Origin: an uncultured Mycoplasmatota bacterium
GTDB lineage: Bacteria; Bacillota_I; Bacilli_A; RF39; UBA660
Direction: 5' to 3'
DNA: 55,631 nucleotides
Assembly: GCA_946494015.1 (NCBI GenBank)
Contig: CAMMBL010000003.1
Span: 1 to 55,631 of the forward strand
Shown here: positions 4,781 through 45,143 of the stretch, piece by piece
Layout of the letters: each line of letters starts with the position of its first letter
How positions within the stretch are numbered: the stretch's first letter is position 1
Notes under the pieces: generated by a model
Told to the model about the DNA's origin: nothing
What the model saw: the letters and a program-made list of their open reading frames with translations, nothing else
The model's database searches: none
Position numbers and translations under genes: made by a program

Positions 4781-7589
4781 AAATAAAAAAAATAATTTAC
4801 TAATTCCTATAGCAATTATTTATATAATTCTAATTATAATTAGCTATTTTATACTAGGATTATTAGTAACTGTTTTTATGGGCGTTGGTATCTTAATAAT
4901 AATAGGTATTGCCAAACTAGTAGATAGTGTAAAAAATAAACCTAAGCAAAAAAAGATAGTTAATACTATTTTAATTATAATTTTATCTATTGGTATATTA
5001 GTTATGCTAGCTGGGATAGTCTTTATGATTTATATAGCTATTTCAGCTAATTCAAAATTTGATGCTAGCAAACTAGATAGTAGTGAACCAACTGTTTTAT
5101 ATGATATAAATGGTGATGAATATGCTAAACTTGGTAATGAAATGAGAGATAAAGTAACGTATGATGAATTACCTGAAGTATTAGTTGATGCTATTGTAGC
5201 TACTGAAGATTCAAGATTCTTTCAACATAATGGATTTGATGCTCCAAGATTCTTTAAAGCTTCTTTAGGACAATTAATAGGTAATTCAGATGCTGGTGGA
5301 GCTTCTACTTTATCTATGCAAGTAATTAAAAACAAATTAACATCACGAGTAGCATCTGGAATAGATGGAATTATTAGAAAATTCCAAGATATATATCTAG
5401 CTATTTTCAAACTTGAAAAAAATTATACTAAAGAACAAATAATAGAGTTTTATGTAAACAATCATGGATTAGGTGGAAATATATATGGTGTTAGTCAAGC
5501 AGCTAGAGTATACTTTAATAAAGATATTCAAGACTTAAATCTTGCTGAAGCTAGTATTATTGCTGGAATGTTCCAAGCTCCTAATACATATCGTCCTACT
5601 AATGAAGAAAATATAGAGGCTGTTACTAAACGTCGTAATACTGTTTTATACTTAATGGAACGACATGGATATATTTCTAAAGAAGAAAGAGAAATAGCAA
5701 GTTCAATTAGTGTTGAAAGTCTAGTCAATTATAATGAAACAGCTGATATTAGTGGTAATAGTGAATATCAAGGATATATTGATACAGTAGTAGCGGAAGT
5801 AGAAGATAAATATGATGCTAATCCATACACTACTCCAATGAAAATTTATACTAATTTAGATCGAGAAAAACAAGATGGTGTTAATCGAGTTATGAATGGA
5901 GAAAGCTATACTTGGATTAATGATGTTATTCAAAGTGGAGTTTCTGTACTTGATAGTGAAACAGGAAAAATACTAGCTATAGGAGCTGGTAGAAATAAAA
6001 CGGGAGTTAATACTCTTAATTATGCTACAAGTATAAAAAGACAACCTGGATCGACTGCAAAACCATTATTTGATTATGGACCATTAATTGAATACAATAA
6101 TGCTTCAACTTTTGGATATAATGATGGAAAAGATAACTATAAAATGTTTGTAGATGAACCATATTCCTATACTAATGGCAAAGAAATTAACAACTGGGAT
6201 GGTAAATTTATGGGTAATATGACTACAAGGAGAGCTCTTTCTTTATCAAGAAATATTCCAGCTCTAAAAGCATTCCAACAAGTTGACAATTCTAAAATAA
6301 TTGAATTTGTAGAAAAATTAGGAATTAAACCAGAAGTAGAAAATGGTAAAATTCATGAAGCTCATGCTCTAGGTGCTTTTGATGGTGTTAATTCCCTTCA
6401 AATGGCAGCAGCTTATGCGGCATTCTCTAATGGTGGCTATTATAATGAACCATATTCTGTAAGTAAAGTTGTCTTTACTCAAAGTGGTGAAGAATATGAA
6501 CATAAAAATAAAAAAGAAAAAGTAATGGAAGATTCTACTGCTTTTATGATTACAAGTATACTAGATGATACTAGTATTACTGGTGGAGGAGCAATTGATA
6601 AAGTTGCTATGAAAACTGGTACTACAAATTTTGATGAAAACTATCGTAAACAATTAGGGATGGCTGATGATGCTATTAGAGATTCATGGGTTATTGGTTA
6701 TACAACTAAAACAGTAATTGGATTATGGTATGGTTATAAAGAAACTACCCCTGAATCTGTTGCTCAAGGCTATTATTGCCATAACTTAGCTGGTACAGTT
6801 CAACGTGATAGATTATTTACTGCCTTATCTAATGAAGTATTTGAAAAGAATAAAGAAGATTTTAAAATGCCTGATAGCGTTGTTAAAGTACCATTAGTAG
6901 CTAACAGTAGTACAGCTAAAGTAGCTGGTACAGGTTATACTGGTTCCATAATATATGAATACTTTAAAAAAGATCATGAACCAACAGGTAAACAAGAAAT
7001 AAGCAATTTATCAGCGCCAAGTAATTTAACAGCTACTTATAAAAATGGTAGTGTTCATCTAAATTGGACTGGAGTTAATCCAGGAGTTACTGATTCTTCT
7101 TATGGTGAATTTGGATACAATGTATATCTAAATAATACGCTATTAGGATTTACAACTAATACAAGTTATACAGTTAATAATCCTAGTAATCCATATGGTA
7201 CTTATAAAGTAATTGCTACTTTCAAAAATTATGATGGTCTAGATAGTACAGCTGCTACTTATGAATTAAAGAAAAGTAGTGCTAATTTAAAAATTAATGC
7301 CAGTAGTATAAATGTTGATAAATTCTATATAAATGATATAACTAAATACTTAACTGTATATGATGGTAGTACTAATGTAACAAGTCAAACTAGTAATTGG
7401 ACATTATCAAGTATTTCAGGACCTACAACCTCAACAGCTACAACAGTTTTATCAACACCAGGTACTTATACCTTAAAATATCGCTTTACCTATGATGGTG
7501 AAACTAAAGAAACAGGTAACATAACGGTTACTATAAATGAAAAGAAAGAACCTGAAATATCAGAGCCTAGTACTGATCCTACAACCTAA
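4758..7589 (+). CDS. ponA: Class A penicillin-binding protein 1A with C-terminal FN3/Ig-like region
   Basis: Transglycosylase motifs ATEDSRF, GASTLSMQ, RKFQD; transpeptidase STAK, SRN, KTGT; recU-ponA operon. Confidence 0.93.
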   Translation: MTKKKTNKNKKNNLLIPIAIIYIILIIISYFILGLLVTVFMGVGILIIIGIAKLVDSVKNKPKQKKIVNTILIIILSIGILVMLAGIVFMIYIAISANSKFDASKLDSSEPTVLYDINGDEYAKLGNEMRDKVTYDELPEVLVDAIVATEDSRFFQHNGFDAPRFFKASLGQLIGNSDAGGASTLSMQVIKNKLTSRVASGIDGIIRKFQDIYLAIFKLEKNYTKEQIIEFYVNNHGLGGNIYGVSQAARVYFNKDIQDLNLAEASIIAGMFQAPNTYRPTNEENIEAVTKRRNTVLYLMERHGYISKEEREIASSISVESLVNYNETADISGNSEYQGYIDTVVAEVEDKYDANPYTTPMKIYTNLDREKQDGVNRVMNGESYTWINDVIQSGVSVLDSETGKILAIGAGRNKTGVNTLNYATSIKRQPGSTAKPLFDYGPLIEYNNASTFGYNDGKDNYKMFVDEPYSYTNGKEINNWDGKFMGNMTTRRALSLSRNIPALKAFQQVDNSKIIEFVEKLGIKPEVENGKIHEAHALGAFDGVNSLQMAAAYAAFSNGGYYNEPYSVSKVVFTQSGEEYEHKNKKEKVMEDSTAFMITSILDDTSITGGGAIDKVAMKTGTTNFDENYRKQLGMADDAIRDSWVIGYTTKTVIGLWYGYKETTPESVAQGYYCHNLAGTVQRDRLFTALSNEVFEKNKEDFKMPDSVVKVPLVANSSTAKVAGTGYTGSIIYEYFKKDHEPTGKQEISNLSAPSNLTATYKNGSVHLNWTGVNPGVTDSSYGEFGYNVYLNNTLLGFTTNTSYTVNNPSNPYGTYKVIATFKNYDGLDSTAATYELKKSSANLKINASSINVDKFYINDITKYLTVYDGSTNVTSQTSNWTLSSISGPTTSTATTVLSTPGTYTLKYRFTYDGETKETGNITVTINEKKEPEISEPSTDPTT

Positions 7590-7598
7590 AAAAGAAGC

Positions 7599-8282
7599 TT
7601 ATTTTAACAGCTTCTTTTCTTTTTTACAAATATTTTTTAACTCACAATTATCACATAGAGGTTTAACTGCTTTACAATAATATCTTCCAAATAAAACTAA
7701 CTGTAAGTGTCTTTTAGCCCAAACTTCACGTTTAAATGCTCTTTTAAGTTTTTCTTCTACTTCTATAACACTATCCTTTTCTTTAGCAAGATATAATCTT
7801 TTAGAAACTCTTTCCACATGAGTATCTACCGCTATAGCCGGTATATTATAAAATTCACTTAAAAATACATTAACTGTTTTCCTTCCTACTCCTGGAAAAG
7901 ATTCTAATATCTTTCTACTTTTAGGAACTCTACCATCATACTTAAAACACAACAATTTAGCTATTTCTTTAACATATAAAGCCTTTTTATGATAAGACCC
8001 TATTGGCCTTAAAATATCTTCCAAATCTTCTAAATTAGCCTTAGATAAACTATCAAGATTAGGATACTTTTCTAATAAAATAGGCATAACACTATTAACA
8101 CGTTTATCTGTAGACTGTGCACTTAAAACAATAGCAATCAATAATTCATAATCCGTATTATAATTAAGTTCACATTTAGGATCAGGAAATAAATAATCTA
8201 AATAATTTTCAATAATTTTTACTCTATTCTCTTTCTTCATCATCATCAAACCAATCATAATCAAATACTTCAATTGGTTCAT
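7599..8282 (-). CDS. nth: Endonuclease III
   Basis: LLIAIVLSAQSTD, PGVGRKT HhH motif, VDTHV, C-terminal CxxxxxxCxxCxxxxxC 4Fe-4S cluster. True start probably MMKKENR. Confidence 0.96.
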   Translation of the reverse strand: MNQLKYLIMIGLMMMKKENRVKIIENYLDYLFPDPKCELNYNTDYELLIAIVLSAQSTDKRVNSVMPILLEKYPNLDSLSKANLEDLEDILRPIGSYHKKALYVKEIAKLLCFKYDGRVPKSRKILESFPGVGRKTVNVFLSEFYNIPAIAVDTHVERVSKRLYLAKEKDSVIEVEEKLKRAFKREVWAKRHLQLVLFGRYYCKAVKPLCDNCELKNICKKEKKLLK

Positions 8283-8895
8283 TTAACTCCTTACTTTTCT
8301 TATTTAAAAAATGAATAACATCTTCTTTAGTCTTAATTCCCTTTTTATCCCATTCATATAATATTCTATCTATATATCTAATACTAGAAACCCCATTTAA
8401 AGAAGCCTCTTTAACCGCTTCTATTATCACTTCATTATTAAAATTACTAGCCCAAGCTTTAATAAATTCTATTTCACTAGAATTCAAAGTCCTACCAAAT
8501 TCTTTTTCTATAATTGAAAATACATTCTCATCCAATTCATTATTAACATTATCATCAACTACCTCATCTAGCATAATACTAGTAATTTTTTCATAAAACA
8601 AACTTAAATTTATTTTTTCTTCTATTGTTCCCTTATCATTTTTATAAGTATCTATAACTAATAATTTTTTATCATTTAAAGAAGATATTAATGTTAAAAC
8701 TTCAACAGTTTTTAATCCTAAATCTTCAGATATTCTAACTGGATTAAAAGTAATCAAATTACCTTTTCCTTTTAAATACATTAAGAAAAAAAACTCATCT
8801 AAACTTATATCTAATTTCTTATAACATTTATAAAAACTTAAGGGTACAACAATATTATCTTCTTTTAATAAATCAACTAGAAACTTTTCTTTCAT
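8224..8895 (-). CDS. dnaD: DnaD domain replication protein
   Basis: EKEFGRTL...E.E.I..W, EAVKEA, RYIDRIL.EW.KKGIKT; dnaD-nth synteny. Confidence 0.88.
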   Translation of the reverse strand: MKEKFLVDLLKEDNIVVPLSFYKCYKKLDISLDEFFFLMYLKGKGNLITFNPVRISEDLGLKTVEVLTLISSLNDKKLLVIDTYKNDKGTIEEKINLSLFYEKITSIMLDEVVDDNVNNELDENVFSIIEKEFGRTLNSSEIEFIKAWASNFNNEVIIEAVKEASLNGVSSIRYIDRILYEWDKKGIKTKEDVIHFLNKKSKELNEPIEVFDYDWFDDDEERE

Positions 8896-10006
8896 CGCTA
8901 CCCTCCTTTAACAAATTAAGATATATTTCTTTCGCTAAAAGTAATAGATCTTCTTTTTTATTAGCAACTTTTAACTCAAGAATATAATTCTCTATCTCTT
9001 GCCAAATTTCACGTAAAACAGGTCCTTCTTCAATATCTAAAGTACTCATAATATCATAAGAATCTATTACTATATCACTTCTTTTATGAATAGGCATATC
9101 TTCATATAAATCAACAACTTTCTTTTTATCATATCCCATTATTTCAGAAGCAACTGTACAAACATATAAATCATAATCATATAAAGTTCTAACTGCCAAA
9201 GGATTCTTATCTAATGCTTCTCTTATACTACTCATCAAATTAAGTTCATTTCTAGTAAAAGGATATATATCATCAACTTCTAATAAAGTCCAAATTCCAA
9301 TAACTTGGCTACAAGGCTTTACCTTATTAAGATTTTTTAACTCTAAAAAATTAGTAAGTTCTAATTCTTTAAGTAATTTAATTCCTTTAATTAAATTATT
9401 ACTACTAAAGATTTTATCTAGTTCTTCTTTCTTTCTATTTACAGATAAATCCTTTAATAAATATTTATCTTGTCTAATCGCCTCTTTTAAACTACCATCT
9501 AGTTCAAAATCTAAAGTAGTTGCAAATCTAATAGCCCGTAATATTCTAAGAGAATCAAAAGAAATTGATTTTAAAGGATCGACAACCGTTTTAATTATTT
9601 TTTTATCTATATCTCCTTTATTATTTAATAAATCAATTATATTACCAAATTTATCCATACATATAGTATTAATAGTAAAATCCCTTCTTTTTAAATCTGT
9701 TTTTAAATCATTTACATAAGTTATAACATCAGGATGTCTATTATCACTATAACAATATTCACATCTATAAGTAGTAATTTCAAATCTAATACCATCTAAA
9801 TATATACTAACACTTCCATATGAAGCATTCTCTAAATTAGCATTAGGAAATATCTTAATTAATTCCTTAGGTTTAGCATTAGTAGTAATATCTACATCAT
9901 TAGATTTAACCCCCATTAAATAATCTCTAACAAATCCTCCTACTATATATGCTTCATAAGAATTATCTTCAATCATATTTAAAACTTTTAAGGCTGTATC
10001 TAACAT
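8873..10006 (-). CDS. cca: CCA-adding tRNA nucleotidyltransferase
   Basis: YIVGGFVRD, DVDITT, EITTYR, DLKRRDFTIN, DSLRILRAIRF. Confidence 0.92.
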   Translation of the reverse strand: MLDTALKVLNMIEDNSYEAYIVGGFVRDYLMGVKSNDVDITTNAKPKELIKIFPNANLENASYGSVSIYLDGIRFEITTYRCEYCYSDNRHPDVITYVNDLKTDLKRRDFTINTICMDKFGNIIDLLNNKGDIDKKIIKTVVDPLKSISFDSLRILRAIRFATTLDFELDGSLKEAIRQDKYLLKDLSVNRKKEELDKIFSSNNLIKGIKLLKELELTNFLELKNLNKVKPCSQVIGIWTLLEVDDIYPFTRNELNLMSSIREALDKNPLAVRTLYDYDLYVCTVASEIMGYDKKKVVDLYEDMPIHKRSDIVIDSYDIMSTLDIEEGPVLREIWQEIENYILELKVANKKEDLLLLAKEIYLNLLKEGSDERKVSS

Positions 10007-10342: not shown

Positions 10343-10615
10343 TTAATTTACTGCGTCTTTAAGAGCAGATCCTGCTTTAAATGAAACAACATTTCTAGCT
10401 TCAATTTGAACAGTTTCTCCAGTTCTAGGATTACGTCCTTCACGTGCTGCTCTTTTTGATACACTAAATGTACCAAAACCAACTAGTGGAACTTTATCTC
10501 CTTTAGCTAATGCTTCAGCAATAGCTTCACAAAATGCATCAGTAGCACGTACTGCATCAGCTTTAGTTAAACCAGCTTTTTCAGCAACAGCTTCGATTAA
10601 TTCTACTTTTTTCAT
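10343..10615 (-). CDS. hup: Histone-like DNA-binding protein HU
   Basis: GFGTFSV..RAAREGRNPRTGE...I......FKAG..LKDAV. Confidence 0.97.
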   Translation of the reverse strand: MKKVELIEAVAEKAGLTKADAVRATDAFCEAIAEALAKGDKVPLVGFGTFSVSKRAAREGRNPRTGETVQIEARNVVSFKAGSALKDAVN

Positions 10616-10776
10616 TTAAAAACCTCCTATTATATTAAGCATATCTTGCTTACATAATAAGGATACCATGAAAGCCTTTTTAAATCAATGATTTTTAGTG
10701 TTTTTAAAGATAAAAATAAAACAGTTATTTTTATTAAAATATTTTTATAACTGTTTTATATTTCTTGATTTTTTAT

Positions 10777-11253
10777 TTAATTACTAGGAATTTTTAATAT
10801 TTGACCAACAGACAATAAATTAGTTGTTAAATTATTCAAAGATTTAATTGCATCTACTGTTGTATTAAATCTATTAGCTATACTCCATAAACTATCTCCA
10901 CTTTTAACCGTATAATTAACAGGAGTTATATTATTAGAAGATGGTATAAGTAAAACTTGACCTATAGAAAGTAAATTAGATGTTAAACTATTGGCATCTT
11001 TTAAAGCTGCAACTGTAACTCCAAATTGATTGGCAATACTCCATAGACTATCTCCAGACTTTACAGTATAAGTATTTGTAGTTATATTATCATTATCATT
11101 ATTATTATCTTCTTCTAAATCATCACTAGCACTAATACCAGGAATAATCAAAGACTGTCCTATGCTTAAAGTATCACTAATTAAGTCATTTGCATCCCTT
11201 ATTTCTTGAACTGTAATTCCAAATTTCCTAGCTATACTCCAAAGGTTATCTCC
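10777..11253 (-). pseudogene. 3' fragment of the interrupted amidase-LysM gene (rest of LysM4, LysM5, LysM6)
   Basis: The open frame extends 34 codons upstream of the tracked 11151 start as GDNLWSIARKFGITVQEIRDANDLISDTLSIGQSLIIP, beginning exactly at the attachment core. It is in frame with the 5' fragment. Confidence 0.93.
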
Positions 11254-11269
11254 AGATACATTTTTTATG
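11247..11269. repeat. Left attachment junction (core TATCTCC plus arm AGATACATTTTTTATG)
   Basis: Read directly; the arm is the 15/16 reverse complement of the arm at 15369-15384. Confidence 0.92.
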
Positions 11270-12830
11270 TAACATTTTTAAATGTAAATATAATATCTAT
11301 CGTTTTGTCCTGATAGATATAAATTTTTTCAACCAAATTTATTATCAATTCTCTAGTTGGATTTTCTAATGATAAAAATTCATTAATATATTTTTCTATC
11401 ATTTTATTATCTATTTTATTGGATTCACTATTTTCATTTTTAAGATTATCAATACTTGATTTATTATTTTCTATTTCATGCTTTAGATTTTCACTAACTC
11501 TTATATATTGTTCTTCATCAATAATACCCTTTAACATATTCATATAATTTTTATCCAAAGTTTCAGTTAAGTTATTATTTGCAAATTCTAAACTTTCTAT
11601 TTGCTTTTTTATTTTTAAAGTATTATCTATAGGGCTTATATTACCAATAGATTCTTTTACCTTATTTCTATCTAAATACTTTTTGCAAACTCCTTTTATA
11701 TTATCTAAAATAATCCTTTCTAGATTTTCATAATTGTTTGTATGAGTTGTGCAAACATGATATTTAGAATATGTTCTGTAATAATCACAAGTGGTATAAC
11801 TTCTACCTGTTTTATTTTGGTATCTAATTGTTATTCTGTGTTTACAATCTCCACAATATAAAAGCCCATCTAATAAATAAAATCTTTTTTTATCAGGTCT
11901 TTTAACATTTTTAGGTAGTAAAGTTTGTACATAATTAAATTTATCTCTATCAATAATTGCCTCATGGGTATTCTCAACTATAATATAGTCATTGGGGTTA
12001 TTTTTAACCGTCTTTTTAAGTTTATAATTAATCTTTTTAGTTTTACCTTGAACTGTATCTCCTACATATATCTGATTAGTAAGTATTGCTTTTACAGTAG
12101 TATCAACCCATATACCATATTCTTGGCTTATACAATTTGTATTTATGCACTTTGTATTCCATACATAATTATAATAAGATGCTGGAGTTTTAATTTTTCT
12201 TTCTGTAAGATATTGTGCTATATAATGGTAGGTATTACCTTTTAGTGCTAAATCAAATATCAATTTAACAGTATCTGCTTGTTCAACATTCACTACTAAA
12301 TGATTTTTATTTGTTGGATCTTTTATATAACCAAAAGGACATCTACCAGATACATATAATCCTTCTTTCATTCTAGAATGTAAACTTGTTTTAACTTTTT
12401 TAGAAATATCTTTAGCATACATATCATTCATTATTGCTTTAAAAGGTGCTATGTCATTATTAGTATTATCTATAAATGTGTCTATACCATCATTAATAGC
12501 AATATACCTAACATTTTTATTTGGAAAATACTTTTCTATTAATTCACCTGTACCAATATAATCTCTACCTAATCTAGACATGTCTTTGGTAATAATCATA
12601 TTGATTTTACCAAGTTCAATATCTTTCATCATTTTTTTGAATGCTGGTCTATCAAAATTAGTTCCTGAAAATCCATCATCAACATATTCATCTACTACTA
12701 TGTAATTATTTTCTTTAACATATTGTTTTAGTAAACTTCTTTGACTAATAACACTATCAGATTCTATTTTTCCATCATCTCTTGATAATCTTATATATAA
12801 TCCTACTTTAAAACTACTATTCCCAATCAT
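11265..12830 (-). CDS. Large serine recombinase (resolvase, recombinase and zinc-ribbon domains; SpoIVCA/TnpX-like)
   Basis: YIRLS catalytic Ser, YVDDGFSGTNFDRPAF, KDMSRLGRD, PFGY, HEAIID, CGDC...C...C zinc ribbon, 521 aa. Confidence 0.96.
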   Translation of the reverse strand: MIGNSSFKVGLYIRLSRDDGKIESDSVISQRSLLKQYVKENNYIVVDEYVDDGFSGTNFDRPAFKKMMKDIELGKINMIITKDMSRLGRDYIGTGELIEKYFPNKNVRYIAINDGIDTFIDNTNNDIAPFKAIMNDMYAKDISKKVKTSLHSRMKEGLYVSGRCPFGYIKDPTNKNHLVVNVEQADTVKLIFDLALKGNTYHYIAQYLTERKIKTPASYYNYVWNTKCINTNCISQEYGIWVDTTVKAILTNQIYVGDTVQGKTKKINYKLKKTVKNNPNDYIIVENTHEAIIDRDKFNYVQTLLPKNVKRPDKKRFYLLDGLLYCGDCKHRITIRYQNKTGRSYTTCDYYRTYSKYHVCTTHTNNYENLERIILDNIKGVCKKYLDRNKVKESIGNISPIDNTLKIKKQIESLEFANNNLTETLDKNYMNMLKGIIDEEQYIRVSENLKHEIENNKSSIDNLKNENSESNKIDNKMIEKYINEFLSLENPTRELIINLVEKIYIYQDKTIDIIFTFKNVT

Positions 12831-13009
12831 TAATTATTTCTCCTTTCCTTTTGGGAATAATGAGTATGATTGAATGGTAGCTCTAAATTTAAAATATTAC
12901 AAGTCTTATTAATCTTTTTTTGTAATTCAATTTTTAATACTTCAGTTATTGTTTCGTTTAAAGATTTTCCATTTTCTTTAAACTTTAAATTAACTTTGTA
13001 TTCAACCAT
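12830..13009 (-). CDS. 59-aa basic protein coupled to the recombinase (candidate recombination directionality factor)
   Basis: ATG at 13009 after GGAGG; stop overlaps the recombinase start; the ORF track gives a 65-aa version. Function is inferred from position only. Confidence 0.6.
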   Translation of the reverse strand: MVEYKVNLKFKENGKSLNETITEVLKIELQKKINKTCNILNLELPFNHTHYSQKERRNN

Positions 13010-13109
13010 AGAGTTTATTACCTCCATTTAAACCTATGGCATTAACTTTAATTTTAGTAATATTATTTGGTATGCATATTACATACTCAAAAATATTACT
13101 TAACTTCAT
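13002..13109 (-). CDS. Unannotated 35-aa ORF (MKLSNIFEYVICIPNNITKIKVNAIGLNGGNKLYG)
   Basis: GGAGG RBS; overlaps both neighbouring small ORFs. Confidence 0.35.
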   Translation of the reverse strand: MKLSNIFEYVICIPNNITKIKVNAIGLNGGNKLYG

Positions 13110-13140
13110 ATTCCTCCATTATATTTTTCATAAACATCAT
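13096..13140 (-). CDS. Unannotated 14-aa leader ORF (MMFMKNIMEEYEVK)
   Basis: AAGGAG RBS immediately downstream of a sigma-A-like promoter. Confidence 0.3.
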   Translation of the reverse strand: MMFMKNIMEEYEVK

Positions 13141-13154
13141 CTCCTTTTGCATGG

Positions 13155-13183
13155 ATGATACCTCTTTAAAATATAGGAGTCAA
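13155..13183 (-). promoter_or_regulatory. Sigma-A-like promoter for the small ORFs and recombinase
   Basis: TTGACT-17 nt-TATCAT on the minus strand. Confidence 0.65.
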
Positions 13184-13250
13184 GTTATATTTTTATTGTT
13201 AATTTTTTATATTATCCTAAAATTCAAAAAAATTAATTAATTACTGATTA

Positions 13251-13340
13251 GCAGGATAAGAAGTAGGCGCCTTGATCCTTATTTTTCTTTATAAAATAAG
13301 TAAAATAGTAGGTGCCATTCTTATTTTGCACTTGCAAAAT
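13251..13340 (-). other. Candidate origin of transfer (MOBP/RP4-like nic motif with repeats)
   Basis: Minus strand GCCTACTTC-T-TATCCTGC versus RP4 oriT GCCTACTTC-ACC-TATCCTG^C (recalled); flanked by two AGTAGGYGCC...CTTATTTT direct repeats and short inverted repeats. Confidence 0.5.
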
Positions 13341-13456
13341 TCATCCTATTTTATAGGTTTATATTAAGGTTAAATATAAACAATATAAAATTTTAAGACA
13401 ATAAAAAATCATCCTTTTTTCCAATTTTTATTAAAAATAGTAGGATGATTAAATTT

Positions 13457-14182
13457 TTATTTTTGTTTAATGGTTTTTAATTTTTCATCATAATAATTAA
13501 ACATCTTCTGAATTATATTATCACCAAATTCATTAATCGTTGAAAAATCTGACATTAAATTTTTAAATTGCTCAATACTTAATATTTCTGATAAATATCT
13601 TATAGATAGATAACTTAAATCATAGCCATTATAGTTATCATTAATGAAAGAATTTCCATGTTTTAAATTATTCATTTGAGGTATTACTTTGGTTTGCTCC
13701 CTTACCCTTAAATAAAAATCATTAAAAACACCTGAATCGTTCAGTGAATCTTTTTCTCCTGACATAAATTGTGCCATTCCTTCATCGTACCAAACTATCC
13801 TTTTTGAATAATCATTGTGCAATATATATTTCATATATAAAATATGAAATAATTCATGGCTAGCAGTATACAATCTTTTTAACTGGAATTTAGGATTCAC
13901 ACACGCATTAACCATTTCATTATCATAAGTCCCTGTAGCATATTCGGGTAACGAATCTCTTTCACCTCTTAAAGAATATATAAATTCTCTAAATTCTTCT
14001 ACATTATCAAAATAATTAACAACTATTGGTTCATCACTAGAAATACTAAAAAATAATTTATATTCTTCTATCTTTTTATTAAGTAAGGAAACAGTTGCTT
14101 GTGCTAAATTTTCTAGGCTCTCTGAATAATTTATTTCACACAAGTTTGTTTTTAAACTTTTTCTCATTTTCATCACCACCAC
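13457..14182 (-). CDS. Gluzincin-type zinc metallopeptidase (MA clan-like), no signal peptide evident
   Basis: SHELFH (HExxH) followed by WYDEGMAQF (third-ligand EG.A motif) and C-terminal Y..SYL.I.YL helix. Confidence 0.72.
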   Translation of the reverse strand: MVVMKMRKSLKTNLCEINYSESLENLAQATVSLLNKKIEEYKLFFSISSDEPIVVNYFDNVEEFREFIYSLRGERDSLPEYATGTYDNEMVNACVNPKFQLKRLYTASHELFHILYMKYILHNDYSKRIVWYDEGMAQFMSGEKDSLNDSGVFNDFYLRVREQTKVIPQMNNLKHGNSFINDNYNGYDLSYLSIRYLSEILSIEQFKNLMSDFSTINEFGDNIIQKMFNYYDEKLKTIKQK

Positions 14183-14184
14183 AA

Positions 14185-15264
14185 TTAACTTTCTAAATCT
14201 TTTTCAGATAAATTTAACATATTCCTAGCTCTCAATAAGAGTTGCTGATAAGTAAGAATATGTATATTGTGATAAGAAGAATTCAATATTCTTAAATATT
14301 TTTTTTCTTCATCACTTAATTCATTCTTAGTACCAATTAATATAATACCTCTTGGTCTTGCTATGACACAATCATTATCATCTTGATAACTATTATTTGA
14401 AGTCATTTTTTCTAATTCAAAAATATAATTTTGAGTTTGTGCAATTGCTTTTGTTAATTCACTAGATGAATAATAATTTTTATGATTCGTATCATAATGA
14501 AATAACTCCGCAGTTGGTAATTTAACTTCTATTATATCAATAAAATCCTCTAAATTTTTAGGAATACCATCTAATATATTTTTAGAATTAATTTTTTCTT
14601 CTTTTACAAAAGTACAATATTCACTCCCAAAAAGCCACAAATTTTTCTTTAAAAATTTTTGTATAAAAACTTCATTTTTAAATTTACCATTAATTATTTT
14701 TTCTAGATCTAAAATTGCTTGTTCTTTCATTTTAATATTTACTAATTTATAATAATCATCTATGCTATCAATATTATTTTCTATTAATTTAAGAAAATCA
14801 TTTTTTGAAATAGCTTTATTATAATTGTTATTAGAAGTTTGAATTTTATATGACAAATCATTATTACATAATTTTATTTCATCTAAAAATTGTTTTAAAA
14901 CGCTTATTGCGTGAGGGTTTAATGTTACTTCTTGTTCATTGTAGATATTGCCTTTAGATGTTCTTCTACATATATGTAAACCAGAAGTTTTATTACCTTC
15001 TTCTGTCTCAACAAGCCAACACCAATATTTCTGTTGTCCTGTTGGTGATTCGAATAATTTTATCTTTTCTGAAATTTTAAATTCAAGAGATTGCTGTCCA
15101 ATCTCATATTGTTCTTCTGTATATGTATTTCCGCAATCTGATATTGCCTCAGCCATTCTATAATTATCTCCATCCTCTTTATTTATTTTTTTACCTATGT
15201 ATATTTTTCCATCTTTTTTATTATCATCAAAATTCGGATTAAAATTATTCAAGCAAATCACCAC
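14185..15264 (-). CDS. Shedu (SduA/DUF4263)-like anti-phage nuclease
   Basis: E.FIQKFLKKNLWLFG.EY, D...D.IEVK.P (PD-(D/E)xK), ELTKAIAQ..NY, PRGIILIG, I.ILTY..LL.RA: the DUF4263 core, preceded by an unrecognised N-terminal domain. Confidence 0.75.
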   Translation of the reverse strand: MVICLNNFNPNFDDNKKDGKIYIGKKINKEDGDNYRMAEAISDCGNTYTEEQYEIGQQSLEFKISEKIKLFESPTGQQKYWCWLVETEEGNKTSGLHICRRTSKGNIYNEQEVTLNPHAISVLKQFLDEIKLCNNDLSYKIQTSNNNYNKAISKNDFLKLIENNIDSIDDYYKLVNIKMKEQAILDLEKIINGKFKNEVFIQKFLKKNLWLFGSEYCTFVKEEKINSKNILDGIPKNLEDFIDIIEVKLPTAELFHYDTNHKNYYSSSELTKAIAQTQNYIFELEKMTSNNSYQDDNDCVIARPRGIILIGTKNELSDEEKKYLRILNSSYHNIHILTYQQLLLRARNMLNLSEKDLES

Positions 15265-15298
15265 CCAAAGTTTTTAGTTATCTATAATTATATCATAT

Positions 15299-15327
15299 AA
15301 AAAGGCACTTTTCTTAAAAAAGCCCTT
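15299..15327 (-). terminator. Intrinsic terminator supplied by the element downstream of the truncated amidase
   Basis: Minus strand AAGGGCTTTT-ttaag-AAAAGTGCC-TTTTT hairpin plus U-tract, 27 nt after the new stop codon. Confidence 0.55.
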
Positions 15328-15353
15328 AAGATTCCTTGTGATTTTAAATATTT

Positions 15354-16538
15354 CTACTCATTATTCCCCATAAAAATTGTATCTCCTTTTTCTACTGTGT
15401 AATAAAAGACAGCACCATTATTATCTCCTTGATTATTATTTTCACCACTAACACCAGGAATAGTTAGAACTTGGCCTACACTAAGAGTATCAGTTACAAG
15501 ATTATTAGCATCTCTTATTTGTTGAACTGTAACTCCAAATTGATTAGCAATCTTCCATAAACTATCTCCTTTTACTACCGTATAAGTAGTAGAGGGCTGT
15601 GTTTGATTATTATCTTCATTGTCATTACCTGCACCAGGAATTATTAAAACTTGGCCGATACTAAGGACATCACTTGTCAAATTATTAGCTCTCCTTAAAT
15701 CATTAACACTAATACCATAACGACTTGCTATACTCCATAAACTATCTCCCTTTTGAACAGTATAAGTAGTAGATCCACCTATATTATTATCATTATTTCC
15801 ATTATTACCAGGTATTCTTAAAACTTGTCCTACACTAAGAAGATCAGTTGTTAAATTATTAGCATCTCTTAACTCTTGTACAGTAACTCCAAAGCGATTA
15901 GCAATACTCCAAAGACTATCTCCTTTTTTTACTGTATAAAAATTAGTACCACTTCCTTCTGGTGGAGTATAAGGAACTCCAGCATATTCAGCAATTGCTC
16001 TAACTACTGCTTCTACATAATTTAATAAATCATTTTGTAACTTAACTCTATCATTAGCATTATCAATAAAACCATACTCTACAAGTAATGATTGCATAGG
16101 AGAAGTTTCTCTAATAATATAATAATAATCTTTTGAAGGATCTTCTGGTAATCTTCTTTGATAATATTTACGCATAATTTGTCCTTCAGAACCAATTTCT
16201 TCTAAAATATTTTGAGCTAAAGTAGAAGAATTACGCAAAGCATAAATAACTTCAGCACCTTCTCCTCCTCCAGCATTTATATGATTAGAAATAAGTATAG
16301 CATCCCTACTTCCACCAAAAGCCTCATTAGCACGTCTAAGCCGTTCTTCTCTACTCAAATTTTCATCAAAATCTCTTGTTAAAACTGCTGGTATACCTAG
16401 TTCTTGTAATCTTTCATACATATATAAAGAAGCATCTAATGTAAAATTTTTCTCTTGCAAGCCACCACTAACAGCTCCAGGATCAGAACCTCCATGTCCC
16501 GCATCTACAACAACACCTGTTACTCTACGCTCATTCAT
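15354..16538 (-). CDS. N-acetylmuramoyl-L-alanine amidase (Amidase_3) with 3 LysM repeats; 5' part of the interrupted gene
   Basis: VVVDAGHGGSDPGA, EKNFTL, ISNHINAGGGEGAE, LLVEYGF; three complete LysM repeats, then YTVEKGD breaking into the element-derived tail TIFMGNNE. Start at ATG 16538 after GAGGTG. Confidence 0.93.
   Translation of the reverse strand: MNERRVTGVVVDAGHGGSDPGAVSGGLQEKNFTLDASLYMYERLQELGIPAVLTRDFDENLSREERLRRANEAFGGSRDAILISNHINAGGGEGAEVIYALRNSSTLAQNILEEIGSEGQIMRKYYQRRLPEDPSKDYYYIIRETSPMQSLLVEYGFIDNANDRVKLQNDLLNYVEAVVRAIAEYAGVPYTPPEGSGTNFYTVKKGDSLWSIANRFGVTVQELRDANNLTTDLLSVGQVLRIPGNNGNNDNNIGGSTTYTVQKGDSLWSIASRYGISVNDLRRANNLTSDVLSIGQVLIIPGAGNDNEDNNQTQPSTTYTVVKGDSLWKIANQFGVTVQQIRDANNLVTDTLSVGQVLTIPGVSGENNNQGDNNGAVFYYTVEKGDTIFMGNNE
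15369..15386. repeat. Right attachment junction (arm CATAAAAATTGTATCT plus CC; core TATCTCC 15380-15386)
   Basis: Read directly. Confidence 0.92.
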
Positions 16539-16901
16539 AATATTCACCTCTACATTAAAATATGTAAAAAGGCCTATTTTGCTACTATTATAAGCATTAA
16601 GCTTAATAAAACTAACTATATTTTAAAAAATAAAAGATTTTCTAATGATGAAATATTATAAAACCAAAATAAAATATTAACAACAACAAAACATAACTTA
16701 AAAAAATTTGATAGAGGTGTATTTTCTAAAATGGAAAACAATACCAATGCTAAATTAAATACACTAGTAAAAAACTTACAGGCAAAAAAAATAACCTTTT
16801 GCTTTTTAGCAATACGGCTATTTTTATATAACAAATTACTTAATAACTTTTTATAGTTTTTGATATTAAATTCAATAAACTTATAATTCTTTCTTATTAA
16901 T

Positions 16902-25920: not shown

Positions 25921-26553
25921 TTATAACGTTTTATCTAAAGATACAGGTTTTAAAGCTTTCATAAATTCTAATTCTATAATTGATCTAAAAGCTCTACCTT
26001 TATCAATAACTTCATTAATAGCATCTTTATCAACATTAGCCCATGAAAAGTTAACTTCCCCTATTGGAAGTTCTCTACTCTTAGAATTTGCATATTCTCT
26101 TATAAACTCTCTAATAGTTCTACCATTACCTTCTCTAAACGGATGAATATTTAAAAGTTCAACATAATAAGTAGCAAGAAAAGAAGCAAAAGAAAACTTA
26201 GAATCAACAGTTTTAATTTCTTCATTCATCATTTTAAAAGTATAATCTAGTCTATAATCAATTTCTTCTACTGGAGCAAAATAAGAATTATTTTTTCCCA
26301 TATAAACAGTTCTATTTTTACCAGCAAAGGGATAAATATCTGAAAACAAATAAAAATGAATCATTCGCAAATGAGCAGTATCAAAATTCATATCAATTGG
26401 CTGCTTATATAATGAAACCATCTTCTCAAAAGTTATTTCAATTTCTTTTCTTTTTAATTCTTCTTTATCAGTTATACCTAAATTATTTTTCAAAACATCA
26501 CTACTAGGTATAAAATATTCATTCCATCTCTTTGTATTTTCAGCATCACTCAT
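25921..26553 (-). CDS. Fic-domain protein (canonical AMPylase motif)
   Basis: HPFREGNGRTIR; IH.YLF.DIY.FAGK.R.V. Confidence 0.9.
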   Translation of the reverse strand: MSDAENTKRWNEYFIPSSDVLKNNLGITDKEELKRKEIEITFEKMVSLYKQPIDMNFDTAHLRMIHFYLFSDIYPFAGKNRTVYMGKNNSYFAPVEEIDYRLDYTFKMMNEEIKTVDSKFSFASFLATYYVELLNIHPFREGNGRTIREFIREYANSKSRELPIGEVNFSWANVDKDAINEVIDKGRAFRSIIELEFMKALKPVSLDKTL

Positions 26554-40438: not shown

Positions 40439-40467
40439 GAACTTTTTATAAAGTAAAACATAAAGTA
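40439..40467 (+). promoter_or_regulatory. Sigma-K/E-like sporulation promoter of cwlJ
   Basis: GAAC-16 nt-CATAAAGTA fits the AC-N16-CATAnnnTA mother-cell consensus. Confidence 0.45.
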
Positions 40468-40473
40468 TATTAG

Positions 40474-40914
40474 GTGATCAAAATGTCCCAAATAGTTCAA
40501 TATACAAATAAAGAATTAGATTTATTGGCAAGATTAATGAGAGCAGAAGCAGTTGGTGAAGGAGAATATGGTATGTTAATGGTTGGTAATGTAGGAGTAA
40601 ATAGAGTCCTTGCTAATTGTTATACTTTTAAAAAAATTAATACCATAACACAAATGGTTTATCAAAATCCTGGCGGTTTTGCTGGTATTAATAGTCCTCA
40701 ATTTACATCAGGATCTACTATTAAAGAACGTGAATTAGCTCAAAGAAATTTAAAAGGTGAATGCTACTATCCTGCTACTAATGCCCTATGGTTTTATGCT
40801 CCTGGAAGAAATAACAACTGTATTAGTACTTGGTATGATCAAGCACTAGCAGGAAGATTTAAAAATCACTGTTTTTATGCTCCTGATCCTAATATTTGTC
40901 CACCCCTTCACTAA
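40474..40914 (+). CDS. cwlJ: Spore cortex-lytic enzyme CwlJ (Hydrolase_2)
   Basis: LDLLARLMRAEAVGEGEYGMLMVGNVGVNRV.ANC, LWFYAP, WY.Q...RFKNHCFY.P...C closely follow B. subtilis CwlJ. Confidence 0.88.
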   Translation: MIKMSQIVQYTNKELDLLARLMRAEAVGEGEYGMLMVGNVGVNRVLANCYTFKKINTITQMVYQNPGGFAGINSPQFTSGSTIKERELAQRNLKGECYYPATNALWFYAPGRNNNCISTWYDQALAGRFKNHCFYAPDPNICPPLH

Positions 40915-42764: not shown

Positions 42765-45143
42765 TTATTTTTTTATTAAAAACATAAATTCATGCTCTAC
42801 TGTATTACCCTTATCTTTTATTCCATGTTTTTCTATATTAGATACATTCTCTTTCCCAATATAAACTATATCAAAATATTTTGAAGCATATTTTTCTAAT
42901 TCACATGCCATATCTATTTTAGAAGTTTTCCCAAGATGTAAAATAACCTTACCATCTTTTTTTAATACTTTACTACACATTTTAAAAAAAGAATCATAAA
43001 CACTAAAATCTTTTTTTTGTTTTGAATCCAAAAATAATTGTTCAGCATCTTTAAAATGTTTTTTATCCCAACCACATAACCATAATCTCATCCAATTTTG
43101 CATATAAAATTTAATTGAATCAGCGAAGGGAGGAGAACAAATAATATAATCAACTTCTAAATTATATGAAACTATATTACTATAATCTCCATATATAGCT
43201 CTACCCTTTACGTAATTAGAAAAATCACCAGTTTTATATGCAGCATCTATTTTATCTTTTATATGCTTAATAACATTTTTATAAACAAACTCTCCTTTTG
43301 GTGCATAAGGAGTTAAAGAATGTGAAATTCTAGATAAAGCATAAGGTCTATTTCCATGTAAAACATGCATAAACGCTGATAATATAACAGCATCAGAAGA
43401 TGTAATATTATGTATATTTGTTAAAAAATATTCTCTTGCACATATTATTTCTCTAAAAGTATCTTCATGAAAATAGGCTGCTAAAGTCTTATTATAACCA
43501 AAATCTTTATTTTCTAAAATCTTTTGAGCTATCTTTTTCGTATCTTTATTTTTTAAAATATACTTATCTAACTTATCAAGTGCAATTTTTACTTCTTCAT
43601 AATCAGGTTTTTCTAATTTAGCTTTAGAAACAACAAAAGCCATTTCACTTAAATCATTACCAATACCAATTCTTCCTTGTAAACATGCTTCAAAAGGAAT
43701 AGTACCAACTCCTGATAAAGGATCTAAAACTATATCACCTTCTTCAGTAAAATCTTTTATTAAAAAATAAGCAATAGCTGGTTTTAATTTACCATGATAT
43801 GAACATAAAGAATGCCAAGGATGACCCCAATTTCTTCCTACATAAGGTTTATTTTTGTAAGGCATAATCTTAATAAAGTCCGTAGCTTTTTTTAAAAACT
43901 TTTGAGCTTCTTTATTATGTTCATCTACTAACTTATTCTTTTCTAATTTAAAGCGAAGAATTCTTTGCGATAAAACCATCTTATTTTTAGATCTCCTCTT
44001 TCTTAAAATGCTCTCATCATACTTAATAAACCCATAATTTTCACATATCTGAGATAAAATTTCATGAGTAGGAATATGTACTCCAGCAAATTGTGAATCA
44101 CCAATATCCATAATAAATATACCATTATCTTTAAGAGCAACTGACAATTTTTTAATAACAGTATCCATATCATTAAAATATCCAATTATCATTTTAACTA
44201 TTCTTTTATCATAGACAATAGGTTCTAACCTATCAACATATGGTTTAACAAAATCTAATGGAATAAAATTTTCATTTCTTTTTGAAACATTATTAATACC
44301 AGCGATAATACCTTTTGAATGAAAAAAAGGCATATTACTTTCATCAGTTATAAAATCATTAAGCTTCAACTCTAATTTTGTATTTCTAATATAATTAGTT
44401 CCATTTAAATAAGGAGGAGAGGTAATAACACAATCAAATAAATTTTCTTCACTAATATCCCTTGCATCTGGCTTTAATAAAGTTGTTTCACATTTTAAGG
44501 TATTACCATAATACTCAATATCATTAATAATACTTTCTAATTTTTTAATAAATAAATCTATAACACTATCTTTATTTTTTTTAATCATTTCTTTTTCAGT
44601 GGCATATCGCAAATCACCACGTCTAACAGTTTTAGAACTAGGTACAACAATAGAAGATAATGCTAACATCAAAATTTTTCTAGTATTTTCTTCTTTTACC
44701 TTAAAAATTTCTTTTTTAATTTGCAAAATTATATTTAATCTTTCTTCTTCAAAAAACTTTTCAAATCCTCCCCATTCAATATTTTTAATACTTTTAAAGT
44801 TCTTTTTTTCAATTTTATCTAAAAATTCTTTTAATAAAGTTGTCCCTATTTTTTCATTACATATTTTTCTTACACAATTAATTTTAGTGTCAATAACATT
44901 TAACATAAAAGGATTAGTCTCACTATAATATGATTTAATCCCTCGTTGACTTGCCACAAGGGGTGTTGTTCCTGTACCGGCAAAAGGATCATATATACAT
45001 TCAATCTTTTTATCTTTAATCATATCTAATTCATTTATAACCAAACATGCTGAATATCCTTCAACATAAGAATACCAATTATGAATAGGTTCTATTTTAT
45101 TTAATTCAAAAGTTCCCGCTTTTTTCAAATCTTCTTTTTTCAT
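42765..45143 (-). CDS. Fused tandem alpha-class amino-methyltransferase (two probable m4C domains)
   Basis: Domain 1 YDPFAGTGTT ... VITSPPY; domain 2 LDPLSGVGT ... IICSPPF; 792 aa; convergent with the endonuclease. Confidence 0.88.
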   Translation of the reverse strand: MKKEDLKKAGTFELNKIEPIHNWYSYVEGYSACLVINELDMIKDKKIECIYDPFAGTGTTPLVASQRGIKSYYSETNPFMLNVIDTKINCVRKICNEKIGTTLLKEFLDKIEKKNFKSIKNIEWGGFEKFFEEERLNIILQIKKEIFKVKEENTRKILMLALSSIVVPSSKTVRRGDLRYATEKEMIKKNKDSVIDLFIKKLESIINDIEYYGNTLKCETTLLKPDARDISEENLFDCVITSPPYLNGTNYIRNTKLELKLNDFITDESNMPFFHSKGIIAGINNVSKRNENFIPLDFVKPYVDRLEPIVYDKRIVKMIIGYFNDMDTVIKKLSVALKDNGIFIMDIGDSQFAGVHIPTHEILSQICENYGFIKYDESILRKRRSKNKMVLSQRILRFKLEKNKLVDEHNKEAQKFLKKATDFIKIMPYKNKPYVGRNWGHPWHSLCSYHGKLKPAIAYFLIKDFTEEGDIVLDPLSGVGTIPFEACLQGRIGIGNDLSEMAFVVSKAKLEKPDYEEVKIALDKLDKYILKNKDTKKIAQKILENKDFGYNKTLAAYFHEDTFREIICAREYFLTNIHNITSSDAVILSAFMHVLHGNRPYALSRISHSLTPYAPKGEFVYKNVIKHIKDKIDAAYKTGDFSNYVKGRAIYGDYSNIVSYNLEVDYIICSPPFADSIKFYMQNWMRLWLCGWDKKHFKDAEQLFLDSKQKKDFSVYDSFFKMCSKVLKKDGKVILHLGKTSKIDMACELEKYASKYFDIVYIGKENVSNIEKHGIKDKGNTVEHEFMFLIKK

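Follow-up and report, generated by a model that had tools for sequence, protein, structure and literature searches.

The contig CAMMBL010000003.1 (55,631 nt, the whole of which we refer to as the window) derives from an uncultured chicken-gut bacterium and carries on its minus strand an Amidase_3 gene with six LysM repeats, the fourth of which we found to be broken by a 4.13-kb element encoding a large serine recombinase (LSR). The insert is very likely an integrated and recently mobile LSR-type mini-element that lands on LysM-coding DNA, and the chromosomal attachment site of its recombinase, attB, is the coding sequence of a domain motif (LysM) rather than one particular gene. The interrupted gene and the ends of the element are laid out as follows:

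15387 to 16538, minus strand: 5' part of the amidase gene, codons 1-384, with Amidase_3, LysM1-3 and the start of LysM4, and without a signal peptide
15380 to 15386, unstranded: attL core, GGAGATA on the gene strand, crossover GG at 15385-15386; the element copy in run X14 has its boundary at 15386
11254 to 15379, minus strand: inserted element, 4126 bp between the 7-bp cores, 4133 bp with one core
11247 to 11253, unstranded: attR core, crossover GG at 11252-11253; contigs of runs X14 and X12 start at 11252
10777 to 11253, minus strand: 3' part of the amidase gene, with the remainder of LysM4, LysM5, LysM6 and the stop codon

The two gene pieces fit together exactly. The open reading frame (ORF) at 15354-16547 on the minus strand has the C-terminal end ...FYYTVEKGD followed by TIFMGNNE and a stop codon, and the minus-strand frame from 11253 to 10777 begins with GD, continues with NLWSIARKFGITVQEIRDAN (also reading NLWSIARKFG after GD) and remains open until its stop, coding two and a half further LysM repeats. 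Both junctions show TATCTCC on the plus strand (11247-11253 and 15380-15386). Joining 16538-15387 to 11253-10777, which amounts to precise removal of the element, yields 1638 nt in frame and a single intact protein, 542 aa long if the ATG at 16538 is the start and 545 aa long if it is the GTG at 16547, in which Pfam places Amidase_3 at residues 9-183 followed by six LysM stretches.

Both the uninterrupted and the occupied allele turned up in other assemblies. In L148 (ENA ERZ27349973, from another sample) the gene runs gapless across the junction, with 99.88% identity over 1641 nt and 2 mismatches, and an 869-nt contig from run X9 extends from 10442 to 11246 and resumes at 15380, skipping exactly 4133 bp with 7 shared bases. 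The colinearity of L148 and the exact skip in X9 indicate a conservative recombination without target-site duplication. Full-length six-repeat orthologs were likewise present in related metagenome-assembled genomes (MAGs), at 81-83% identity in L001, L024 and L040 and 75% in L006. The occupied form recurs in the independent Logan assembly L155, and contigs of run X2 span both of its junctions. An initial annotation of this DNA had proposed the ORF break, the TATCTCC cores, the 542-aa join with Amidase_3 and six LysM repeats, and a serine-recombinase element whose precise removal would rejoin one such ORF; sequence, ORFs and Pfam (Resolvase, Recombinase and Zn_ribbon_recom domains for the recombinase) bear this out, as do the colinear L148 and the joined X9 contig, and the uninterrupted six-LysM allele that it had suggested looking for exists in the near-identical strain L148 and in the related MAGs.

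Copies of the element in other places show that it has moved recently. A 6.3-kb contig of run X14 contains the whole element, from 11252 to 15386, between quite different flanks; this copy differs by 2 mismatches and by a 1-nt deletion at 14299, within the cargo gene sduA. Run X12 holds an identical copy, again in other flanks, with contigs starting at 11252. As the element is ~99.9% identical in other flanks in these two further metagenomes, its mobility must be recent. Furthermore, the LSR module in runs X5 and X9 was 5-30 times deeper than cargo or flanks, indicating that the same chassis circulates there with other cargo. The X14 flanks rebuild a non-LysM site, ...AAAACGTGGAG-GG-GGAAACTTATGAAAAAG, that lies between the ribosome-binding site (RBS) and the start codon of a gene, and the insertion is bounded exactly by GG dinucleotides, which suggests insertion into a pseudo-attB site. 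Odd joints in X2/X14 and X3 (11296 to 15283; 15394 back to 11312) were considered as excision products and set aside on account of their short sides and extra letters; we take them to stem from related elements.

Comparison across the LSR family placed the crossover at a single dinucleotide. We aligned the attachment sites of the 80 best LSR relatives (76-98% identical) of at least 527 matches in species-representative genomes. Behind the recombinase stop, these loci read ...AAAAA(T/G)TGTATC(T/A)-GG-n-GA(T/C)..., with a constant P arm and with a base 3' of the GG, the third base of the Gly codon, that varies among A, G, T and C in more than 60 attR sites, and nearly all 80 code at attR for G-D-(S/T)-L-(W/Y)-x-I-A. 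The opposite end of the element reads (GG)nGATACAATTTTTATGGGGAATAATGAGTA in every family member. The variable base after the GG, taken together with the X14 boundaries, assigns the crossover to the GG in the Gly codon of LysM K-G-D, which corresponds to the plus-strand CC at 11252-11253 and 15385-15386. A crossover within GATA, drawn from six loci, was dropped in view of the 80-locus set and the X14 boundaries. The reconstructed attP, CATAAAAAATGTATCT-GG-AGATACAATTTTTATG, has 16-bp arms that are 15/16 palindromic, i.e., inverted around the crossover dinucleotide that attP shares with attB. All six amidase repeats contain GGAGATA, with 24-30 of 34 positions identical to the LysM4 attB. The two unrecombined junction sequences are:

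attB junction: GTAGAAAAAGGAGATAACCTTTGG
attP junction: AAAAATGTATCTGGAGATACAATTTTTATGGGG

Some loci show joined element ends of other kinds. In L086 and L116, the sequence just past the LSR stop resembles attP, with the P arm running into the left end of an element (...GATACAATTTTTAT...), which suggests a tandem pair of family members. In L183 (UMJX01012991.1, 1380 nt), an attP-configured site (P-arm-like sequence, GG, P' arm) stands downstream of an ORF unlike the usual recombinase C-terminus; a circular form, elements in tandem or a variant of the element could each explain it.

The family as a whole targets LysM-coding DNA in many genes. Across its members, the 5' gene pieces end near residues 210, 268, 328, 389 and 455, which are successive repeat positions, indicating that any repeat can be used; some insertions in LysM1 remove all wall-binding repeats. 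About half of the recognisable 5' flanks belong to the Amidase_3 family of the window, by far the commonest target, and the others comprise proteins with two PG_binding_1 domains and LysM, a GH25 lysozyme with LysM, a divergent Amidase_3 paralog and LysM-only proteins. The upstream motifs of the target genes are mixed, some sigma-A-like and some of the CATAnnnTA type. With the attB being the coding sequence of a protein motif that is present in six copies in this gene, the family can land in any repeat as well as in other LysM genes. The GGAGATA that the initial annotation had noted is indeed common to both junctions, but part of this 7-bp identity is coincidence, the P' arm (AGATA...) being a mimic of LysM codons, and the true crossover dinucleotide is GG. 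Similarly, its notion of a gene-reconstituting element holds as far as conservative integration and a restorable frame are concerned, but needs revision in that the recombinase is specific for the LysM-coding motif rather than for the amidase gene. That it recognised no such target among the described cases agrees with our literature search, which yielded no paper with an amidase or LysM repeat as an LSR target.

We also observed the family in phage-like sequence. Two IMG/VR contigs, L162 and L163 (39.5 and 56.5 kb; 5905-9580), carry a 3.2-kb mini-element with an 88% identical LSR in the LysM part of an M23 lysin. This M23-LysM lysin adjoins holin-like ORFs and a GH25 lysin, pointing to a possible hitch-hiking route. 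Phage records contain no close relative of the LSR, with 35% identity at most, and a phage origin of the element is for that reason not supported.

Within its ends, the element of the window holds six ORFs, all co-oriented with the amidase on the minus strand, and comprises the following features:

15354 to 15379, minus strand: P' arm, which gives the truncated amidase its tail T-I-F-M-G-N-N-E-stop; conserved in all family members
14185 to 15264, minus strand: Shedu nuclease SduA, first cargo gene, 359 aa; Pfam SduA_C (PF14082) 1.3e-19, PADLOC SduA 1.8e-40
13457 to 14182, minus strand: HExxH metallopeptidase-like protein, second cargo gene, 241 aa, ~2 nt downstream of sduA
13155 to 13183, minus strand: sigma-A-like promoter TTGACT-17-TATCAT before the recombinase operon, a motif match alone, kept in many family members
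13002 to 13109, minus strand: micro-ORF, 35 aa (MKLSNIFEYVICIPNNITK...), with a GGAGG RBS; candidate directionality or regulatory factor
12830 to 13027, minus strand: small ORF, 65 aa from the first ATG and 59 aa as called, its stop overlapping the recombinase start; candidate directionality factor
11265 to 12830, minus strand: LSR, 521 aa; Pfam Resolvase 7.7e-23, Recombinase 9.6e-24, Zn_ribbon_recom 7.9e-10

The recombinase has the complete LSR domain set of N-terminal resolvase, recombinase and zinc-ribbon domains. Its best NCBIfam matches, CcrB (112 bits) and XisF (86 bits), are both far below cut-off, and its best relative in the PDB is SPbeta SprA/YokA (chain of 9DXH, 67 bits). The gene stops 11 nt short of the core, and its last codons thus overlap with the P arm. 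Two small ORFs that are conserved with the LSR lie upstream of it in its operon and are translationally coupled, making them candidate directionality factors. The 59/65-aa ORF is 69-97% identical beside the same LSR in six loci and has a homolog in 72 loci, with no family or PDB match; the 35-aa micro-ORF recurs in about 45 of 72 elements, its changes staying in frame, and has no Pfam match. Pfam, family and PDB searches detected no homology of either to a known directionality factor. A sigma-E-like promoter before the small ORF (AATATT-N17-CATACCAA) was rejected, since its conservation across 72 elements turned out to be that of the 35-aa coding micro-ORF.

The cargo appears to be a defence module. 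The first protein is predicted to be an SduA with a C-terminal DUF4263 PD-(D/E)xK-type nuclease domain, its PF14082 match being above cut-off. It thus resembles Shedu in matching the SduA models of both PADLOC and Pfam, but unlike the described single-gene Shedu it is tightly coupled to the HExxH peptidase-like gene, whose product gave only weak Pfam matches below cut-off (Peptidase_M9 and Peptidase_MA_2) and no PADLOC match. The spacing of ~2 nt between the two genes (13457-15264, minus strand) suggests a two-gene Shedu variant. Hairpins with T-runs are located behind the P' arm and behind the cargo, and sduA has an extended -10 promoter (TGATATAAT) in front of it. With these terminator-like hairpins and a promoter of its own, the cassette looks insulated from amidase transcription, and SduA with its peptidase-like partner looks like a vegetatively expressed defence module.

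Other members of the family share this chassis and change its contents. The elements measure 2.8-7.9 kb and keep the order P' arm, cargo, micro-ORF, small ORF, LSR and P arm, whereas the cargo consists elsewhere of AbiU/AIPR with a TyrRS/TrpRS-like gene (L051), of DpnII restriction-modification with a PDC-S32 candidate (L033, L049), or of a major facilitator superfamily (MFS) transporter (L053). The gene beside AbiU/AIPR in L051 (8884-10091) is of the class I, Tyr/Trp-type tRNA-synthetase-like kind, in a sequence with masked letters. The cassette family is apparently very large and undescribed.

The amidase itself appears to be a multi-socket landing pad. In a survey of about 57 related genomes, 6 carry the LSR family of the window in a LysM repeat. 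At a second position, site B, the gene is broken in 25 loci exactly between codons 90 and 91 (HINAG|GGEG), each time with an LSR that is 33-39% identical to that of the window immediately upstream of the 3' piece, and 8 further loci are broken at codon 14/15, adjoining a third LSR type (about 31% identical to the window LSR). Two sites are occupied in several genomes, and strains with an identical neighbour gene differ in occupancy, with site B filled and LysM4 empty (L157/L158 with L148). The site-B island of L156 carries AbiEii, DpnII-MboI, AAA_13, methylase and ICEA genes, and L155 has the Shedu cassette; at the strain level, sites B and C thus take turns in being occupied. In all 23 site-B 3' pieces the frame runs uninterrupted to the natural stop, and the ratio of nonsynonymous to synonymous substitution rates (dN/dS) for codons 91-190 is 0.087 in split genes versus 0.095 in intact ones, with dS saturated (~1.4). 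This low dN/dS, with more than half of the species occupied, argues that the gene functions in occupied lineages and is rejoined at some point. From these data we infer that two other LSR families occupy the gene in more than half of the related species while leaving its pieces intact.

Inserts without a recombinase were seen at the same gene. L024 (2440-6003) and L056 (698-6003) carry an LSR-less insert after codon 17 (GHGG) that leaves the gene intact: at the far end of the insert, a second amidase promoter and the first 17 codons recur (~110 bp duplicated), and a promoter and 5' stub are left behind. In L160 (3974-7082), which has an identical upstream gene, ~3.1 kb are placed between the terminator of that gene and the amidase promoter, coding a 525-aa class I tRNA-synthetase-like protein and an acetyltransferase.

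The interrupted gene has features of a late sporulation gene. Sigma-K promoters follow the pattern AC-16/17-CATAnnnTA in the B. subtilis consensus, and a matching motif precedes the amidase:

16556 to 16582, minus strand: sigma-K-type promoter motif GC-N16-CATATTTTA, about 12 nt before the amidase RBS

We compared 23 orthologs of 46-83% protein identity whose upstream DNA is otherwise unalignable. CATAnnnTA occurred at the same upstream place in 19 of them, versus 1.2 expected by shuffling, and in 17 the full (A/G)C-N16/17-CATAnnnTA stood at a constant spacing from the start, versus 0.07 expected. The protein starts with MNERRVTGVVVDAGHGG, without a signal peptide, and its N-terminal Amidase_3 and C-terminal wall-binding repeats give it the layout of B. 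subtilis CwlC and CwlH, the genes of which are late sigma-K/GerE mother-cell lysis genes (PMC517825). CwlC has SPOR repeats where the amidase here has six LysM repeats, and the two would be functional analogues as judged by architecture; the best NCBIfam match, CwlD, is far below cut-off. The neighbours are core chromosome genes (recA, pgsA, recU, ponA, nth, dnaD, cca, hup, pheST, ezrA), indicating that the amidase is not a prophage lysin. Promoter and architecture give good support to the view that it is probably a late mother-cell gene in a spore-forming host, and the likeliest assignment is a CwlC-like, sigma-K-dependent amidase for mother-cell lysis in endospore-forming uncultured gut Bacilli. 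Best matches are to Candidatus Onthousia and other MAGs of uncultured gut Bacilli with genomes of ~1.5 Mb, and sporulation has been predicted in some families of related uncultured Bacilli orders (PMC10868615).

Other traces of sporulation, and of defence, in the window are few. A 146-aa ORF of the SleB/CwlJ family (Hydrolase_2) at 40474, in the stretch 40441-40914 on the plus strand (Pfam 4.8e-15; TIGR02869 38.6 bits, below cut-off), is directly preceded by a perfect AC-N16-CATAAAGTA, and is the only spore-type marker gene found in the window. A regular-expression search for small acid-soluble spore proteins, SpoIVA and other sporulation proteins gave nothing useful in the window and 147 loci, all of them amidase/LSR neighbourhoods, and walking outward from other genes reached no sporulation gene. 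Outside the element, the window also codes for a 792-aa fused N6/N4 DNA methylase (type IIG-like; 42765-45143, minus strand) and a Fic-domain protein (25921-26553, minus strand), both of defence or toxin type.

To our knowledge, the sporulation genes interrupted by recombinase elements have been limited to sigK, spsM, spoVFB, spoVR and gerE. The elements concerned, among them skin, SPbeta, vfbin, vrin and gin, all reside in mother-cell genes (PMC4191935, PMC5595907). The nearest counterpart is gin in gerE of Bacillus cereus ATCC 10987, which encodes the LSR GirC and the 42-aa directionality factor GirX (PMC5595907). Like gin, the present element is small and non-phage, would lie in frame in a late mother-cell gene, has a short core identity at both junctions and a tiny conserved ORF beside the recombinase, and restores the gene upon precise removal. 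It differs from gin in that the target is an amidase LysM repeat instead of gerE, the attB is a repeated motif that serves as a site in many genes, the cargo is of the anti-phage defence kind, and the small ORFs have no detectable relation to known directionality factors. In skin, which splits sigK, the recombinase is SpoIVCA in B. subtilis, whereas in C. difficile it is CD1231, paired with the directionality factor CD1234 (PMC5025042); in SPbeta, which splits spsM, SprA acts with SprB (PMC4191935, PMC5499854). We see a likeness to both in the conservative LSR interruption of a gene that is probably expressed in the mother cell, with a recombinase distantly related to SprA. However, skin and SPbeta are prophages or remnants of 15-134 kb at one unique site, as opposed to a 4.1-kb cassette with many possible sites; their recombinase or directionality factor has a sigma-E/K promoter, as opposed to a sigma-A-like motif alone; and the amidase split here probably retains part of its function. 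Among named NCBIfam models, XisF and Ccr come closest to the LSR, a relation at family level only, with differing hosts, targets and accessory factors. XisF excises a gene-interrupting element, that of fdxN, during heterocyst development in Anabaena, and Ccr (SCCmec) moves cargo cassettes into one conserved gene end.

Based on these data, the recombinase recognises an attP in which two 16-bp inverted arms flank a central GG, and it recombines this site with a chromosomal one centred on the Gly-codon GG of the LysM motif Y-T-V-K-K-G-D-S-L-W. As integration is conservative, with nothing duplicated or lost, its reversal would restore the 542-aa gene exactly. Excision would need the LSR and a directionality factor, for which the two conserved small ORFs are candidates. 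Meanwhile, the insertion would leave a truncated amidase of 397 aa that retains the whole catalytic domain and three LysM repeats and is probably active, and restoration by excision may for that reason not be needed.

How the element relates to its host gene can be read in more than one way. It may be a developmental element of the skin type, where the LSR and a small-ORF factor would excise it only in the sporulating mother cell while the forespore keeps it, and the six-LysM lysis amidase would be rebuilt just before mother-cell lysis, a scenario that we regard as possible but rather doubtful. Its attraction lies in the target: the sigma-K-type promoter is conserved across diverged orthologs of a protein without a signal peptide, and the two other LSR families split the catalytic domain in more than half of the species at a dN/dS of ~0.09 with intact pieces, and such a split catalytic domain under purifying selection is hard to explain without reconstitution. 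The known cases (skin, SPbeta, vfbin, vrin, gin) are moreover all found in mother-cell genes (PMC4191935, PMC5595907), and small conserved ORFs adjoin the LSR, as GirX and SprB do. A series of observations nonetheless weighs against it. No sigma-E/K-type motif precedes the recombinase operon, RC-N16/17-CATAnnnTA being absent upstream of the small ORFs in the window and in six relatives, so that at the level of motifs the recombinase and the candidate directionality factors show a sigma-A-like promoter, TTGACT-17-TATCAT, alone, and the terminator-like hairpins count against read-through from the amidase promoter. The family inserts in many LysM genes, including sigma-A-type genes and a phage-type lysin, and in one non-LysM site, indicating that its design does not depend on a sporulation gene. 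With the insertion in LysM4, the enzyme probably still works. In the assembled contigs, from which rare variants are lost, neither an excision product nor a circle or composite junction of an occupied strain was seen, and a scan for the attP pattern returned a single ambiguous metagenome contig of 1.4 kb (L183) and nothing from the genome collection. dS is saturated, and the lineages compared may have diverged before the insertions took place. Being short and not enriched across the window (13 found versus 10.8 expected), the sigma-K motif carries weight only through its position and conservation, while the sporulation capacity of the host rests on one weak SleB/CwlJ-like match and promoter motifs. 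Developmental excision of this particular cassette, unsupported by its own regulatory signals and unneeded for an insertion in LysM4, seems to us plausible but less likely than not.

The other reading to be considered seriously is plain integration with no role in gene control, to which we would give slightly less than an even chance. Here the LysM repeat would be a conserved, multi-copy and tolerant safe harbour, the truncated amidase would suffice, and excision would be rare and serve horizontal transfer only, e.g., by hitch-hiking in prophage lysin genes. This agrees with targeting at the level of the motif (any repeat, unrelated LysM proteins, the M23-LysM phage-type lysin and one non-LysM pseudo-site), with sigma-A-like promoters and insulated cargo, with the retention of the catalytic domain and three LysM repeats, and with a fast turnover as seen in strain-level presence or absence and identical copies in other contexts. 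It sits less easily with the fact that the commonest target is one sigma-K-type amidase, which serves two other LSR families as a dock at inactivating positions, with those same-family insertions in LysM1 that strip all wall-binding repeats, and with the co-transcribed small ORFs, which suggest a built-in control of excision. By comparison, an artefact or dead relic, with the contig being chimeric or the element a remnant that no longer moves, lodged in a pseudogene under decay, has a negligible probability. Although the source is a metagenome assembly and the X14 copy of sduA carries a 1-nt deletion, the same arrangement occurs in the independent L155 and X2, every ORF of the element is intact, each half of the gene matches the uninterrupted allele at 99.9%, and identical copies of the element stand in other flanks; we consider this reading effectively refuted by the evidence from X2, L148 and L155.

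A broader and more speculative picture, which we think unlikely as a whole, is that an integrase family uses the LysM coding motif (Y-x-V-x-x-G-D-S-L-W) as its attachment site, with each host or phage LysM repeat a socket for swappable defence cassettes, the sigma-K lysis amidase the favoured socket, and the residents excised in the terminal mother cell. If so, mother-cell excision would rebuild the lysin and free circular cassettes at lysis, thus coupling sporulation to the spread of defence genes.

Structure, precision, mobility, GG crossover and LysM-motif targeting of the element are shown by these data, whatever the answer on excision. They would add a new target that is used very often, namely a lysis-type amidase interrupted at three or four positions in over half of the related species, and a new targeting logic, where attB is a repeated domain-coding motif that offers several sockets per gene and many per genome, even in phage lysins. 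The attP/attB pair with its defined GG crossover is directly testable and, together with the two candidate micro-protein directionality factors, of interest for developing integrase tools. For the uncultured gut Bacilli, the family amounts to a compact natural chassis of 2.8-8 kb that carries Shedu, AbiU, restriction-modification and other cargo among them, and should excision prove to be timed by sporulation, spore formation would be linked to the spread of defence islands.

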